The notes: generated from the sequence alone by a model not told the origin. Positions 2,615 through 9,382 are shown, counted from the stretch's first letter. The stretch is 9,382 nucleotides of DNA from a virus (IMGVR_UViG_2740892235_000008); one strand, 5' to 3'. Numbers and translations are program-made.

Positions 2615-3794
2615 TCACCCCCTGAATCCTGCCGGGATCTGGCTGTAGTCCACATTGTCGTAACTGGCTTTGAAGTACGGGTCTTCGCGTTTTTCTGTGT
2701 ACGTGCTGACGGACGGCGATAAGCGCAGGGAAAGCTCATCCCATTTTTCCCGCAGCTTCGACGGGCTGAGCACGTTNNNNNNNNNNATTTGAAGTACGGG
2801 TCTTCGCGTTTTTCGGTGTACGTGCTGACGGACGGCGATAAGCGCAGGGAAAGCTCATCCCATTTTTCCCGCAGCTTCGACGGGCTGAGCACGTTACGGC
2901 ACCAGAACGGATCGCGGCTGACGCGGCTGTACATCTCGCAGATTTGTTTATGAGTACGACCATCCTGCACACACATCAGGCGAATTTCGTTTGCCCAGGC
3001 TGTCCAGTTCGGTTCTTTGGGACGAACCACCTCGCCGTCACATTCGGCAGCCTGCTCGTACAGGGCGATGATTTTTTTCCAGAACCACTGTGCGCAGGTC
3101 AAATCATCCTGCGTCCCCCACTGGCGTTTTTTAGGGCTGAATACAACCGCATCAGGATGGCGAGTTAAAAAATCCTGTTCAGCCGTCTGCGTGTCCGGTT
3201 GCGAAGAGTCCGGACGAGAAGGTTTTTTATCTGACGGATCATGTTTTGATTTTACTGACGGATCCCCGCCAGATTCTGACGGGTGAAAACCCGCTTTTTT
3301 GCCAGATTTCGACGCATCAAATTTTGACGGGTCAGATTTTGATGCGTCAGATTTTGACGGGTCAGAATCTGACAGTTGAGAAAATGCCGCTGCCTGAAGC
3401 TTCGCAACGTTAAGCTGATAAACATTCGACGCATTGCGGTTACCCTGGCGACGCGCCTTACGCGTTAACCAGCCTTCTGCTTCCAGCCGTGCGATAGCCG
3501 TTCTGACGGTACTCATCCCCGCGCCAATCTGGCGTGCAATGGTTTCAATCGATGGCCAGCACACACCTTCGTCATTACTGAAATCAGCCAGGCGGGCCAT
3601 AATTGCCACGCTGGATAATTTCATGCCTGANNNNNNNNNNAGCCAATCTGACGGGCAATGGTTTCAATTGATGGCCAGCACACACCTTCGTCATTACTGA
3701 AATCAGCCAGGCGGGCCATAATTGCCACGCTGGATAATTTCATGCCTGACGCTGCGCAACCATCCCATACATAGCCGGTTAATTTAGTGCTCAT
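2615..3794 (-). CDS. phage replication initiator, O-like (N-terminal wHTH, Ser/Asp/Lys-rich repeat linker, C-terminal domain); spans two scaffold joins with duplicated flanks
   Basis: ATG 3792-3794 with GAGG Shine-Dalgarno 7 nt upstream; translation MSTKLTGYVWDGCAASGMKLSSVAIMARLADFSNDEGVCWPSIETIARQIG... In-frame through segment 2787-3630. True stop TGA at 2615-2617 found by hand translation (…DPYFKASYDNVDYSQIPAGFRG). The ORF-track frame after the 2777-2786 gap is an artefact. Real gene length is shorter than the coordinate span because 2672-2776 / 2789-2896 and 3520-3630 / 3641-3751 are duplicated overlaps. Confidence 0.6.
2777..2786. other. assembly gap (10 N)
   Basis: Run of n characters; about 105 bp either side are near-identical direct repeats. 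Confidence 0.95.
3224..3377. repeat. iteron-like tandem array (15-bp period; consensus CAGATTTTGACGNGT; 5 contiguous copies at 3303-3377 plus degenerate copies at 3224-3284); candidate replication origin inside the initiator gene
   Basis: Direct reading: cagatttcgacgcat / caaattttgacgggt / cagattttgatgcgt / cagattttgacgggt / cagaatctgacagtt, plus cagattctgacgggt at 3270-3284 and two CTGACGGATC-containing units at 3224-3265. They encode the SDxSK pentapeptide repeats of the linker. Lambda ori iterons lie inside O in the same way (established knowledge). Confidence 0.5.
3631..3640. other. assembly gap (10 N)
   Basis: Run of n characters; 3520-3630 and 3641-3751 are near-identical with 3 SNPs. 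Confidence 0.95.
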
Positions 3795-3803
3795 GACCGA
3801 CCT

Positions 3804-4142
3804 CTATTTCCCTGAATTTACGACGAAACTGTTCGAGCGGGCTGAAGCACTCATGCTCATAGCCTTCGCGGAGGTAGATAACACGTTGTGTTTCCGGCTC
3901 CCAACGAATGACTCTGACGGGCACTCCGTAGTGATCTTTGAACCAGCGGTTAACTTGTCGCAAAGGACTGTCTCCTTCTGCCGGTTGAAATCACCCACAG
4001 CCCACTCTGCAAAGCTGTGGGTTACAATTTCCCTGTCACCTGGTACATTTACTGCATAGCAATACTCCACCTTCGCTTTTCCACCCGGTACAGGAAGCGC
4101 AATCAGTTGCGAGCGACGGTAGTGTGTTGTTAAACTGTTCAT
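3804..4142 (-). CDS. hypothetical protein (112 aa) between cII-like and replication genes
   Basis: ORF-track ORF; ATG 4140-4142 overlaps the upstream stop as ATGA; stop is 9 nt before the replication gene ATG. Same strand as the whole operon. No recognisable family. Confidence 0.4.
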
Positions 4143-4690
4143 GCGTTAGTTTCTCCACAGTCACGACACGCCACGGCGCCCGGAGCTGCACACTCGCGGG
4201 CGTCACTACTTTCTGAAACGCAAAAGATTTTGTAGACCAGTGCTGCATGCTCCTGCAGCTTCGAAATTGAGAGGTACAGCTCATCGTTAATTGCTGTCTT
4301 CTCATGCGGTTCCACTACACCGTCTTCAATTGCTGAACGAATCTGTTTTGAATAACTGCCGATCTGTTCAATGACCTCCAGCAGGCGTTGGTTGATATCG
4401 GCGTTGTCCACATCCTCGACATCAGGAAGAGACACAAAGACGCCATTTGCAGACTGCGCCACAGCGTCAGCAATGAAGTGAGTTCCACCAGCACGTTGCA
4501 AAATCATTGCCCATCCCAGCGGGAAAATCTGATCGCCATCGGCACGAAGGCGGTTAAATAATGCGTTCTCTGTTACATCCAGCCAGTCAGCAGCTTCAGC
4601 GTACCCCCCCGGCAACGCTGCGATAGTTTTTCTGACAGCTTTCACGTACCACTCAGGCTGTTTTTCTACTTTCCAGTGATGCTTACCCAC
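4139..4690 (-). CDS. cII-like early regulator (HTH-containing, 183 aa)
   Basis: GTG start 4688-4690 preceded by a perfect AGGAGG with 6 nt spacing. Sits immediately downstream of the cro-like gene. Remote cII-like HTH pattern in …[19 protein letters not shown]. Function inferred from position and weak pattern. Confidence 0.55.
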
Positions 4691-4943
4691 GGTTCACCTC
4701 CTGTTCCTGTGGTTTAAACCCATTCTGGTTTTGGCTAGATTGAAAACGTGCCGGATAAAGAATCTGCATTTCGCTGACTTCACCCTTAAAAAAATTGGCT
4801 AAACGTTCTGCAAGCTCGATAGATGGAATCTGCTCCAGCCTCTCAATACGACTCAACGTCGCTGGATTGACTTGAACACCCGCAGCAACATGCTGCAAAG
4901 TGAAACCATGCGCCTTACGCACATTTCGTAATGGTGATTGCAT
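4683..4943 (-). CDS. cro: Cro-like XRE-family HTH repressor (86 aa), immunity module 1
   Basis: ATG 4941-4943 with GGAGGG Shine-Dalgarno; translation MQSPLRNVRKAHGFTLQHVAAGVQVNPATLSRIERLEQIPSIELAERLANFF is a typical HTH_3 fold. Divergent from the cI-like gene across a 97-bp operator region. Confidence 0.7.
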   Translation of the reverse strand: MQSPLRNVRKAHGFTLQHVAAGVQVNPATLSRIERLEQIPSIELAERLANFFKGEVSEMQILYPARFQSSQNQNGFKPQEQEVNRG

Positions 4944-5040
4944 ATGCCCTCCAAATATTGCGCGTTATGCATGTTATTTCACGCAATTATTTTGCGCAAG
5001 TTGATTTGCTTATCACGCAATAAAGAAATGTAATAAACGC
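4944..5040. promoter_or_regulatory. divergent promoter/operator region (OR/PR/PRM-like) of immunity module 1
   Basis: Between divergent cro-like and cI-like starts. Contains dyad TTGCTTATCACGCAA (5006-5020), a weaker TTGCGCGTTATGCAT (4958-4972) and the palindrome CGCAATTATTTTGCG (4982-4996). Possible PR toward cro: -35 TTGCGC, -10 TAACAT read on the minus strand. Confidence 0.55.
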
Positions 5041-5733
5041 ATGAACATAGGAAACCGAGTCAGACAACTTCGCCAAGCGAAGAACATGAAAATCGCCGAT
5101 CTCGCTGAAGCGATAGGAGTAGATGCGGCGAACATCTCGCGCTTAGAAACGGGTAAGCAAAAACAATTTACCGAACAAACACTGAGTAATATTGCCAGGA
5201 GCTTAGGTGTTGATATTGCTGATCTCTTTACCTCTGCCCACAAAAGTAATACTGTATATAAAAACAGTAATAATGAGGATGTTGCGCAGGTGAAGGATGT
5301 GTTCCGTATTGAAATGCTGGATATCAGTGCCAGTGCGGGAAATGGCCTTATCCAGGGCGGTGATGTCATTGATGTGATTCATGCCATCGAATACAGAACT
5401 GATAATGCTGTATCAATGTTCGGCGGACGACCAGCCAATCACATCAAAGTTATCAACGTTCGTGGGGACAGTATGTGTCCAACCATTGAGCCCGGAGATC
5501 TCATCTTCGTTGATGTCAGCATCAATCAGTTTGATGGTGATGGTATATATGTCTTTGGTTTTGATGACAAAATATACGTTAAAAGACTTCAAATGATTCC
5601 TGACAAACTGCTGGTGATTTCTGATAACCAGATTTACCGTGAATGGGGAATTACTAGCGAAAACGAACACCGATTCATGGTCTTTGGAAAGGTCTTAATC
5701 AGTCAGTCGCAAACCCTTAAGAGACATAATTAA
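5041..5733 (+). CDS. cI: CI-like phage repressor (N-terminal XRE HTH, C-terminal S24/LexA-type autopeptidase), 230 aa
   Basis: Translation has HTH (VRQLRQAKNMKIADLAEAIGVDAANISRLETGK), a candidate Ala-Gly cleavage site (ASAGNG) and the S24 catalytic motifs GDSM … KRL. Stop TAA 5731-5733. Confidence 0.9.
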   Translation: MNIGNRVRQLRQAKNMKIADLAEAIGVDAANISRLETGKQKQFTEQTLSNIARSLGVDIADLFTSAHKSNTVYKNSNNEDVAQVKDVFRIEMLDISASAGNGLIQGGDVIDVIHAIEYRTDNAVSMFGGRPANHIKVINVRGDSMCPTIEPGDLIFVDVSINQFDGDGIYVFGFDDKIYVKRLQMIPDKLLVISDNQIYREWGITSENEHRFMVFGKVLISQSQTLKRHN

Positions 5734-5742
5734 CCTCAATAT

Positions 5743-5765
5743 CCCATCCATCGGCCACCGAAAGG
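5743..5765 (+). terminator. rho-independent terminator downstream of cI-1
   Basis: GGCCACC-GAAA-GGTGGC hairpin followed by TTTTT (ggccaccgaaaggtggcttttt). Confidence 0.7.
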
Positions 5766-5777
5766 TGGCTTTTTATT

Positions 5778-5828
5778 ACCTATAAATTTGCATATCTCGC
5801 AAATATCACTTGCATATCTCGCAATTTA
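5778..5828 (+). promoter_or_regulatory. candidate OL/pL of module 1: two 15-bp direct repeats TTGCATATCTCGCAA (5778-5792, 5800-5814) overlapping a sigma70-like promoter (-35 TTGCAT 5800-5805, 17-bp spacer, -10 TATCTT 5823-5828)
   Basis: The repeats share the TTGC-N7-GCAA dyad and 13 of 15 bases with the OR site 5006-5020, consistent with the same repressor binding at both. Spacing of the two copies is 22 bp. Confidence 0.45.
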
Positions 5829-5920
5829 ATTTTATCTTTTGTTCCAGACCAACTACAGGATTACAACAAAATCTGGTTGCAACACGGTGCATGTGTCGTA
5901 AGCAGTCAGTAAATGTCAAA

Positions 5921-5985
5921 AACGAACAGGCAGGACGCCCACGAAGTAGCCGCCGGTGGCGTATGAATGACCGGATGATTCGTTA
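5921..5985 (+). ncRNA. conserved 65-nt structured element, copy 1 (candidate cis-acting leader RNA, nut/put-like, or small RNA)
   Basis: Same 65-nt sequence as 8186-8250 except in a 20-nt core. Outer inverted repeat AACGAA…TTCGTT. Inner stem CCGGT(N12)ACCGG here versus CCTGG(N12)CCAGG in copy 2, i.e. two compensatory base-pair changes preserve the stem. Confidence 0.4.
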
Positions 5986-6009
5986 AATACTATGTGTAAG
6001 AGAGCGCAA

Positions 6010-6213
6010 ATGAACCGTTATTTCACATGCTCGTTTTGTGGCGCAAACGAGCTGCAGGCAAAAAAAATCATCGCCAAAGGCGGAAAAGATGAAGTTGCTA
6101 TCTGCTCTGAGTGCGTAGTCTTGTGTGTCGGGGCATTAATCAATAGCAGCACAACTATTCGGTTCACACCAAATGAGAATGCGCCTTTAGATGCGCGGAA
6201 ATCTGGAGGTTAA
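6010..6213 (+). CDS. small ClpX-type C4 zinc-finger (ClpX N-terminal ZBD-like) protein, about 67 aa
   Basis: Translation MNRYFTCSFCGANELQAKKIIAKGGKDEVAICSECVVLC… matches the remembered ClpX N-terminal zinc-binding signature ([33 protein letters not shown]). Purine-rich AAGAGAG 5 nt before ATG 6010; the ORF-track ATG at 5992 has no Shine-Dalgarno. Confidence 0.55.
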   Translation: MNRYFTCSFCGANELQAKKIIAKGGKDEVAICSECVVLCVGALINSSTTIRFTPNENAPLDARKSGG

Positions 6214-6221
6214 AGAACAAA

Positions 6222-6497
6222 ATGAAAGTCCAGATTTTAAACAATAGTGGTGAAGTCGTTTGGTCATACGACATAGCCGCTCCTGTAGATCAGAGCGGCG
6301 ATAGCTGGACCAATGGGAAACATCAGATTATGGCTGGAGTTGTATTCTCTTTACGCCGTGCTTTGGAACAGGCTGAAGTCTTTCCATCAGACCCTGAATG
6401 GAAATGGCCTTTTTCTATTTGTCCAAATTCGGAGAGTACATTTCAGAAAATTGGTCAGAAAGTCGCACTCGAAGAGCATCAGCCAACTGTTTCCTGA
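6222..6497 (+). CDS. hypothetical protein (91 aa)
   Basis: ORF-track ORF. GGAGG at 6205-6209 but with 12-nt spacing to the ATG. Its 3' 83 nt overlap the convergent ORF at 6415-6660, so the true extent of one of the two is uncertain. Confidence 0.4.
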   Translation: MKVQILNNSGEVVWSYDIAAPVDQSGDSWTNGKHQIMAGVVFSLRRALEQAEVFPSDPEWKWPFSICPNSESTFQKIGQKVALEEHQPTVS

Positions 6498-6660
6498 TTT
6501 TTTCAGGTAACTCGTCGGCATCGCAGAAACAACAACGCTCGATCATGTTGAAAGCCGATTCGTAGAACTGTTTCTGCTGAGTGTCGCTGAGACAGGAAAA
6601 GAGCGACGTTACGATGATTTTATTAATTGCATTATCAAGTTCTTTTTCATCAAAAGTCAT
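6415..6660 (-). CDS. hypothetical protein (81 aa), convergent to the preceding ORFs
   Basis: ATG 6658-6660 with AAGGA Shine-Dalgarno about 7 nt upstream (revcomp of 6661-6680 is atacataaaaggaaaatcaa). Protein-like composition with a CCFCD motif. Confidence 0.45.
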   Translation of the reverse strand: MTFDEKELDNAINKIIVTSLFSCLSDTQQKQFYESAFNMIERCCFCDADELPEKIRKQLADALRVRLSDQFSEMYSPNLDK

Positions 6661-6689
6661 TTGATTTTCCTTTTATGTATACGGGCTTA

Positions 6690-6803
6690 AAAGGATACCA
6701 CCGAGCCTGAAGTGGTGAAAAGACAGGCACATAACAGCTAAGTATTTTCAACCAGAGAGAATCCTTAGCGTTGTGGTGAATGCGGCTCAGCGCACGCGGG
6801 TTA
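6690..6803. repeat. conserved right-flank element, copy A (6725-6803 identical to 8930-9008; 6690-6724 similar with SNPs to 8896-8929)
   Basis: Direct comparison of the two stretches; copy A is truncated by the gap at 6804. Confidence 0.6.
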
Positions 6804-6813
6804 NNNNNNNNNN
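6804..6813. other. assembly gap (10 N)
   Basis: Run of n characters. Confidence 0.95.
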
Positions 6814-8185: not shown

Positions 8186-8250
8186 AACGAACAGGCAGGA
8201 CGCCCACGAAGTAGCCGCCTGGGGCATATGAAGTCCAGGATGATTCGTTA
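8186..8250 (+). ncRNA. conserved 65-nt structured element, copy 2
   Basis: See copy 1; starts only about 6-8 nt after the predicted pL2 transcription start. Confidence 0.4.
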
Positions 8251-8901: not shown

Positions 8902-9008
8902 GTCCACCTCGCCTGATGTGGCTAAAAGCAGGCACATAACAGCTAAGTATTTTCAACCAGAGAGAATCCTTAGCGTTGTGGTGAATGCGGCTCAGCGCAC
9001 GCGGGTTA
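8896..9008. repeat. conserved right-flank element, copy B
   Basis: 8930-9008 identical to 6725-6803; preceding about 34 bp similar with SNPs. Confidence 0.6.
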
Positions 9009-9120
9009 AGGTTGAGGCTGACAGTCGACCTTCTGTGGATACCCACCCGCCTGGTGTGCAACCTTCGCCAGGCACCGGGAGGCACCCGGCACCACAACTT
9101 TATGCTGTGTGTAGTCCTGG

Positions 9121-9166
9121 CGGTACCAGTTTGTACCCTTGCTTCCGGCTGGTACCGTCCTTTTTT
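9121..9166 (+). terminator. large hairpin plus T-tract (CGGTACCAG-N19-CTGGTACCG then TCCTTTTTT); candidate plus-strand terminator
   Basis: 9-bp perfect inverted repeat followed by a T6 run. An allelic copy at 9258-9304 keeps the stem and carries a CTCTTTTT tract. Confidence 0.5.
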
Positions 9167-9247
9167 GCAAAACAGAGAAGAGCATCACCGGACGACGGGC
9201 TCATAACCCAATCCATCCGGGCGGCTGCCACCGCAGGTGTTCTTCTC

Positions 9248-9257
9248 NNNNNNNNNN
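9248..9257. other. assembly gap (10 N)
   Basis: Run of n characters; 9119-9247 and 9258-9382 are near-identical. Confidence 0.95.
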
Positions 9258-9382
9258 TGTACCAGTTTGTACCCTTGCTTCCGGCTGGTACCGCTCTTTT
9301 TACAAAACAGAGAAGAGCATCACCGGACGACGGGCTCATAACCCAATCCATCCGGGCGGCTGCCACCGCAGGTGTTCTTCTC

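Follow-up and report, generated by a model that had tools for sequence, protein, structure and literature searches.

Gene content and setting of the locus

The window (the whole stretch of DNA analysed here, 9,382 nt, to which all positions refer) contains two small ORFs, A and B, that converge and share their 3' ends. Loci fetched for comparison carry L-numbers (L001, L302 and so on) as labels; an L001 coordinate minus 301 gives the window coordinate.

6222-6497, plus strand: gene A, 91 aa, ATG start (phrog_3195; RefSeq WP_001514782.1; SfV orf33)
6415-6660, minus strand: gene B, 81 aa, ATG start (phrog_3311; RefSeq WP_000141752.1)
6415-6497, both strands: convergent CDS overlap of A and B, 83 bp, 3' end to 3' end, from the ORF list

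An 83-bp convergent overlap had been reported in a preliminary description of this DNA and is borne out by the ORF list, which gives both ORFs at exactly these coordinates. The same description had credited both ORFs with plausible start contexts, and Shine-Dalgarno sequences are indeed kept in diverged relatives (GAGG or GGAGG for A, AAGGA for B). Within the overlap, the first codon positions of the two genes face each other, position 3 of A faces position 2 of B, and position 2 of A faces position 3 of B, a phase that leaves hardly any substitution there synonymous in both genes.

Rather than a single contiguous locus, the window appears to be scaffolded from prophage contigs that are collapsed or related, and the A/B pair sits within the N-bounded piece at 3641-6803. 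Runs of ten Ns occur at seven places (891-900, 1141-1150, 1504-1513, 2777-2786, 3631-3640, 6804-6813 and 9248-9257), and near-duplicates of prophage genes recur among the resulting pieces: two RusA-like genes, two replication-O-like pieces, two ymfL-like genes and two different repressors. The 1.1 kb surrounding A/B matches E. coli chromosomes with 100% identity, and Shigella phage SfV and Escherichia phage vB_EcoM-720R4 are also identical to parts of it. It represents a lambdoid prophage immunity region of the e14/SfV-like type, in which the following features precede A.

4683-4943, minus strand: cro-like gene
5041-5733, plus strand: S24 cI-type repressor gene
5753-5770, plus strand: intrinsic-terminator-like hairpin and T-run at the end of the repressor gene (GGCCACCGAAAGGTGGCT and TTTTATTACC)
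5992-6213, plus strand: ClpX-type C4 zinc-finger gene, 73 aa (Pfam PF06689, E=1.4e-10)

Terminators comparable to that at 5753-5770 are found downstream of the repressor operon in L004, L006, L009 and L299. The zinc-finger gene, whose product PGAP names 'ClpX C4-type zinc finger protein', ends 8 nt 5' of A. Past B, complete genomes continue with yfdP, yfdQ, an HD hydrolase gene, xis and int, all on the plus strand.

Distribution and co-inheritance of A and B

Both genes are present in 291 of the 295 fetched loci; the four exceptional loci have a B match only, truncated to 40-67 of the 81 residues. In one of these (L209, 3001-3288) a deletion inside the overlap fuses B residue 67 to unrelated DNA that runs into tail-fibre-like ORFs, removing A and creating a 95-aa chimeric ORF, and in L208 the same junction is followed by the end of the contig. 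We considered whether these two loci, which lack A, represent B living alone and rejected the idea: L209 is a deletion, i.e. prophage decay, and L208 shares its junction.

Profile scans with A and B of a collection of species-representative genomes gave no confirmed match, suggesting that the family is confined to accessory prophages, and the matches in viral and metagenome scans were almost all of the near-identical E. coli type. The useful divergence came from protein searches followed by contig look-ups. Protein searches returned diverged relatives of A at 57-68% identity, and a profile search placed relatives of B in Salmonella, Klebsiella and Yersinia; on the contigs of these diverged relatives, each locus with one gene also carries the other. 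The resulting core alignment comprises 10 sequences from five deep lineages with 30-36% nucleotide divergence. Across it, the 439 nt from the start codon of A to the start codon of B contain zero indels, and the two ORFs overlap in all 10 sequences, by 65-161 nt.

An exhaustive profile search with A identified further relatives, and DNA was fetched for three of them (L302, L303 and L304), in all of which B lies antisense to A. The A protein of L302 has an 83-residue N-terminal extension, yet the distance from the start of the A domain to the ATG of B is again 439 nt, with an overlap of 137 nt. In L303, A and B are one codon shorter (spacing 436, overlap 140 nt); helix 3 of B is kept, while the C-terminal motif of A is not recognisable. 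This one lineage argues that the C-terminal segment of A can be lost. L304 (101-664) encodes a zinc finger of the ClpX type and the A domain as a fusion in one 187-aa ORF, and has a three-codon deletion located in the relaxed linker described below. The other distant A proteins retain the motif [ST]F[QH][KR]xG[KQ]xIAL[EG].

A and B are intact in every diverged lineage examined as well as in the three distant loci. The pair is a conserved cassette of lambdoid prophages in Enterobacterales and, judging from its distribution, is old and co-inherited, both genes being at least as old as the split of the sampled Escherichia, Klebsiella and Yersinia phage lineages.

Selection on the two reading frames

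Substitution rates were obtained as parsimony counts on a neighbour-joining tree and are given in steps per site. In the part of A outside the overlap (6225-6414), codon positions 1, 2 and 3 of the A frame change at 0.88, 0.57 and 1.60 steps/site, and in the corresponding part of B (6498-6657) the positions of the B frame change at 0.81, 0.60 and 1.87 steps/site. Codon periodicity has a chi2 of 34.9 (p=3e-8) for the A frame and of 44.5 (p=2e-10) for the B frame, and outside the overlap A and B have pairwise dN/dS values of 0.21 and 0.15, respectively. Polymorphisms that are frequent in the E. coli population are mainly synonymous within each gene's own part, and nonsense variants of A or B are singletons. 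Substitution patterns of this kind indicate that A and B are both genuine protein-coding genes under protein-level purifying selection.

The suspicion raised in the preliminary description that one of the ORFs might be spurious is refuted by this selection in both frames. A chance open frame antisense to the other gene, i.e. an annotation artefact, would fit with the fact that annotation pipelines call just one ORF in every record examined, and long antisense shadow ORFs do exist here, as the 122-aa extension of A illustrates (see below). However, each ORF has a third-position-dominated region of its own, at the p values just given, dN/dS is 0.15-0.21, start codons and Shine-Dalgarno sequences are kept, and both ORFs are intact throughout deep lineages. 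Codon periodicity, low dN/dS and the kept Shine-Dalgarno sequences thus argue that neither A nor B is a chance frame; we regard that explanation as extremely improbable, the comparative data already refuting it.

Constraint within the overlap

The overlap divides into three zones that differ in how they evolve. The first, 6415-6440, is fast in all phases (1.62 steps/site) and corresponds to a variable linker in A (residues 65-73) and to the ragged end of B, which stops after 75, 76, 80 or 81 codons depending on the lineage. Indels in the distant relatives are found only within this zone. The last, 6477-6497, has the codon pattern of B only; here the last six codons of A are unconstrained and the stop of A is variable. 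Between them lies the slowest part of the cassette.

6441-6476, both strands: dual-coding core, 36 nt; plus strand, A residues 74-85 (FQKIGQKVALEE, a C-terminal helix by prediction); minus strand, B residues 62-73 (ALRVRLSDQFSE, within helix 3)

The core changes at 0.69 steps/site, as compared with 1.02-1.09 in the single-coding parts. Third positions of B drop to 0.92 steps/site in the core from 1.87 elsewhere in B (Mann-Whitney p=0.004), and 6 of the 12 in the core are invariant, as against 5 of 53 elsewhere in B (Fisher p=0.003). Third positions of A likewise change at 0.42 steps/site in the core and 1.60 elsewhere in A (p=0.0004 and 0.003). Among all 12-codon windows the core has the lowest synonymous-site rate in A as well as in B. 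Its dS is 0.39 in the A frame (1.33 elsewhere) and 0.31 in the B frame (1.80 elsewhere), a 4-5 fold drop, while dN stays at about 0.25; this dual-constraint result rests on 12 codons and five deep lineages. Replacements in the core are conservative in both proteins, with K/Q/R, I/V and G/A exchanges in A and D/E, Q/R, F/L, S/A and M/I/L exchanges in B.

These rates point to a dual-coding signature that is carried by the core 6441-6476 and not by the outer tails (6415-6440 and 6477-6497). Synonymous-site constraint among homologs, which the preliminary description had named as the mark of dual coding, is accordingly found in both frames of the 36-nt core and only there, and the fall in dS from 1.3-1.8 to 0.3-0.4 in both frames supports the genuine sense/antisense pair that it had offered as one of its explanations. 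Its other suggestion, that one ORF is shorter than called, applies to A residues 86-91 and roughly to B residues 74-81, which are unconstrained and whose stops vary, and fails for the rest. By these measures the constrained part of A comprises residues 1-85, and the last few codons of A and of B appear dispensable.

In most relatives the A frame is open to 122 codons, and A occurs in length variants of 91, 93 or 122 aa. We rejected 122 aa as the true length of A: the extension shows the codon pattern of B, its A-frame dN/dS is 1.6, and in simulations that kept the B protein and randomised its codons the A frame stayed open with P=0.76-1.0 in the long-form lineages. Given this codon pattern and these simulations, the extension is a shadow ORF of B.

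It is conceivable that the same holds for the core, i.e. that only B constrains the shared DNA and that A functionally ends near residue 66-72, after WxWPFSI. The A segment FQKIGQKVALEE would then be a translated, unselected shadow of helix 3 of B, and the synonymous conservation of the core would be due to a signal in the RNA, for example mRNA structure or a site for processing or RNase III. From 6477 on, constraint is indeed in the B frame only, and position 3 of B is the most variable class across the overlap as a whole. The variable stop of A, with a 122-aa form that is a passive result of the B sequence, agrees with such a reading, as do the low-confidence structure model of A and L303, which retains helix 3 of B without the C-terminal motif of A. 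On the other hand, second positions of A in the core change at 0.92 steps/site, like those elsewhere in A (0.57, p=0.24) and unlike those of the unconstrained A extension (1.92, p=0.003). The conservative nature of the A replacements, the retention of the motif in distant A homologs of about 40% identity, and the lack of any conserved RNA hairpin seen in the core also speak against constraint by B alone. We consider it unlikely, albeit the main alternative, and favor constraint by both proteins.

The control region upstream of A

Upstream of the zinc-finger gene are further elements that bear on how A might be transcribed.

5788-5802 and 5810-5824: two identical 15-bp palindromic operator-like repeats, TTGCATATCTCGCAA, 22 bp apart (L001 6089-6103 and 6111-6125)
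5921-5984, plus strand: structured leader RNA element, about 65 nt, three helices, with a second copy at about 8186-8249 (plus strand)

A third copy of the repeat (87% identity) is located between cro and cI (L001 5307-5321). By analogy with lambdoid phages, we infer that 5788-5824 is the OL/pL region driving plus-strand early-left transcription. Promoter-like sites are found at the matching place upstream of A in the diverged loci L006, L009 and L299.

The leader RNA has 16 consensus pairs, 8 of them with compensatory changes among 13 variants. Phage records with the element in the early-left region number 53 and span about 11 genera, most without an annotation for it; carriers include SfV, SfII, ST64B, ZF40 and phiNP as well as e14 of K-12. 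Each of its copies in the window follows just after a repressor gene. Searches of the A/B region, the window and L001 against Rfam gave no match. The element may be an antitermination or processing signal. A minus-strand terminator-like site at 5942-5926 was evaluated as a terminator for B and rejected, as it is one helix of this covarying plus-strand RNA. In Yersinia phages the element is found on the opposite side of the A/B cassette, consistent with A/B being a mobile cassette.

With operator-like repeats and a structured leader RNA upstream, A can be placed in a pL operon. We infer that the zinc-finger gene and A are the first genes of a repressor-controlled early-left operon, with B antisense inside it.

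The leader of B

No other non-coding part of the cassette is as well conserved as the approximately 70 nt 5' of B. Conserved pairing defines three helices, S1-S3.

6661-6728, minus strand: 5' leader of B
6728-6724 with 6709-6705, minus strand: S1, GCCUG/CAGGC
6716-6712 with 6701-6697, minus strand: S2, ACCAC/GUGGU, interleaved with S1
6695-6688 with 6675-6668, minus strand: S3, anti-SD paired with the Shine-Dalgarno region

For S1 and S2, 98% of cells are paired and three pairs show compensatory changes; in one pair, G.U occurs on the B-sense strand only and would be A.C on the opposite strand. Interleaved as they are, S1 and S2 could form a pseudoknot or two alternative hairpins. The two strands of S3 covary, taking different forms by lineage (UCCUUUUA/UAAAAGGA, UCCUUCU/AGAAGGA, UCCUUG/CAAGGA and UCUUGGU/ACCAAGA), and the helix is predicted in 11 of 11 leaders (z = -1.1 to -3.7). 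It covers the Shine-Dalgarno sequence in nine of them and ends just 5' of it in two Yersinia leaders. As a single sequence, the leader of B has unremarkable thermodynamic stability (z = -1.07). Taken together, the conserved pairing suggests that translation of B is probably gated, its ribosome-binding site being masked by one of the leader helices.

Because conserved helices extend up to 6728, the B mRNA must start upstream of that position. A consensus search identified no promoter for B, the sole sigma-70-like match lying inside B. Two candidate signals near the start of B were discarded. For GGTATCCT, which resembles an extended -10 element, the 3' arm of S2 together with the anti-SD strand of S3 is the better reading: in L009 its TG is gone, with a compensatory change, and its downstream bases covary with the Shine-Dalgarno sequence. 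The 'putative terminator' annotated in SfV at the start region of B is just a 5-bp A/T stem.

Properties of the A and B proteins

Both proteins are acidic, with GRAVY values of -0.38 (A) and -0.45 (B) and top 19-residue hydropathies of 0.89 and 0.80, respectively; they are soluble proteins without a membrane segment. The AF2 model of B, of moderate confidence (pLDDT 74.8), has three helices (residues 5-21, 26-47 and 53-75), of which helix 3 is the one encoded in the overlap. The model of A is poor (pLDDT 44.6), with a beta-hairpin and helices at 34-50 and 73-84, so that a C-terminal helix of A is a weakly supported prediction.

Comparisons of A and B with Pfam, NCBIfam and PADLOC returned nothing above threshold, and neither a sequence search of the PDB nor a Foldseek search against PDB and BFVD gave a match, the model of A being too poor to search. 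The only PHROGs matches are to families without assigned function (phrog_3195 and phrog_3311). B also has no Pfam match to the SieB family and resembles sieB just in position and orientation. The fusion of zinc finger and A in L304 suggests a joint function of the two; a connection of this role with ClpX is speculation.

A link to toxin-antitoxin or exclusion modules had been drawn from the overlap in the preliminary description and finds no support in these searches or in the acidic, soluble character of the proteins. Type I toxin-antitoxin systems are a poor fit, as neither protein has a hydrophobic segment and both strands encode conserved proteins. One could nevertheless picture A/B as an antagonistic two-protein module (toxin-antitoxin, abortive infection or exclusion) in which the overlap merely couples inheritance. 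Lambdoid phages carry exclusion genes such as sieB at the early-left position, as in the gene order of Rac, and the cassette occupies that very place. Its strict co-inheritance and fixed spacing across genera and different phage backgrounds are cassette-like, and translation of B appears to be leader-gated, as with some toxin mRNAs. Against this stand the lack of a match in PADLOC, Pfam, NCBIfam, solved structures or viral predicted structures, the hydropathy of the proteins, and the convergent arrangement of the genes, which is unlike that of type II operons. Furthermore, A looks like an early lytic gene and not a lysogen-expressed one, partly by analogy with ymfJ (see below). We therefore think an antagonistic module improbable.

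A convergent pair that could act as an excludon

As the coding regions themselves overlap, no terminator can separate the transcription units of A and B; a transcript from pL would run antisense through the whole of B, and one of B would be antisense to the end of A at the least. This geometry, together with analogous prophage pairs in K-12, makes mutual antisense interference, i.e. an excludon, the most likely mode of action. Our explanation as a whole, to which we assign a probability of roughly 0.62, is that A and B are a genuine gene pair with a dual-coding core that most likely forms an excludon in the pL operon. A would be transcribed rightward, among the first genes of the repressor-controlled pL operon and just after the zinc-finger gene, and B leftward from the far side, antisense within that operon. 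In the repressed prophage only B could be made, its translation gated by the leader helix over the ribosome-binding site. Once pL fires, polymerase collision and RNA duplex formation would shut B down while A is made, so that the B state (repressed) and the A state (induced) would be exclusive.

A more elaborate version would make the cassette a lysis/lysogeny 'excludon switch', in which the shared segment couples the two proteins, A through its C-terminal helix and B through helix 3, by mutual contact or by competition for a target, possibly ClpX via the zinc-finger protein, and translation of B is unlocked only by remodelling of its pseudoknot/anti-SD leader. If this were true, the overlap would force two antagonists to co-evolve and would be no accident of compaction; we regard it as a highly speculative and quite improbable extension of the excludon reading.

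Lambda OOP is a 77-nt non-coding RNA whose 3' overlap with the cII mRNA leads to RNase III-dependent down-regulation of one partner. A/B resembles OOP/cII in that convergent transcripts (predicted ones in the case of A/B) share their 3' ends within a regulatory region of a lambdoid phage. It differs in that A and B both encode conserved proteins and the shared DNA is selected in both frames.

The closest parallels by position are two pairs of E. coli K-12, ymfI-ymfJ of e14 and sieB-ydaF of Rac. In these pairs, as in A/B, an oppositely oriented gene runs tail-to-tail into one located just past the repressor, on the early-left side; A and B have no sequence similarity to either pair and are analogous by position only. 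The CDSs of ymfI and ymfJ converge with a 63-bp overlap beside the e14 repressor gene ymfK (L295 5498-6085). SieB is a membrane protein of 162 aa, in contrast to the soluble B. Both K-12 pairs were recognized as convergent excludons from transcript overlap in RNA-seq data (ExcludonFinder, PMC12288877). In the late SOS response ymfJ is up about 28-fold (log2 4.83) and ymfI about 4-fold (log2 1.98) (PMC11002266); ymfJ, the positional equivalent of A, thus behaves as a repressor-controlled late-SOS gene.

A/B is a third, unrelated pair at the map position of ymfI/ymfJ and sieB/ydaF, suggesting a recurrent design in which lambdoid prophages place a counter-oriented gene just inside the early-left operon. 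Excludon-type control and leader-gated translation could be tested in this compact system; the practical importance of the finding is modest until either protein has a function.

Annotation of the pair

PGAP calls A and not B in strains 00-3076 and O157:H7 PV15-279, and B and not A in strain CX21, though both ORFs are intact there. The SfV record has A only (orf33) and the 720R4 record B only; across the records examined (including L001, L305, L306, L002 and L003), A or B is annotated, never both. DNA specific to B is found in 502 of 5426 complete E. coli genomes (~9%), O157:H7 among them, and most of the RefSeq E. coli records sampled (40 in all) have nothing annotated on this B-only segment. 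These counts expose a systematic annotation gap, one gene of the pair being usually missed.

Long convergent coding overlaps in bacteria are a class usually dismissed as mis-annotation, and A/B provides a clean comparative case. The antisense genes described in E. coli O157:H7 are reportedly, for the most part, young ORFs lying inside an older 'mother' gene, whereas A and B are similarly conserved and share just their 3' ends. The non-trivially overlapping pairs in the reports on asa (PMC6294744) and on three novel antisense genes (PMC9927249) are like A/B in that both strands are protein-coding and automatic annotation retains one frame.

Neighbouring elements

Two further elements lie near the cassette. 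Between the leader of B and yfdP is a G+C-rich stretch (L001 7100-7400, where the locus continues past window position 6803), with similar sequence at window positions ~8985-9366. It contains a 25-nt inverted repeat (L001 7262-7286 and 7326-7350, 84% complementary), and PGAP labels it 'frameshifted hypothetical protein'; the stretch may be a structured RNA instead of coding sequence. In the Salmonella-type locus L004 (2552-3706), a gene for a 384-aa protein with an HSDR_N (restriction-endonuclease-like) domain is situated between the repressor and the A/B cassette and is likely a lysogen-expressed defence gene.
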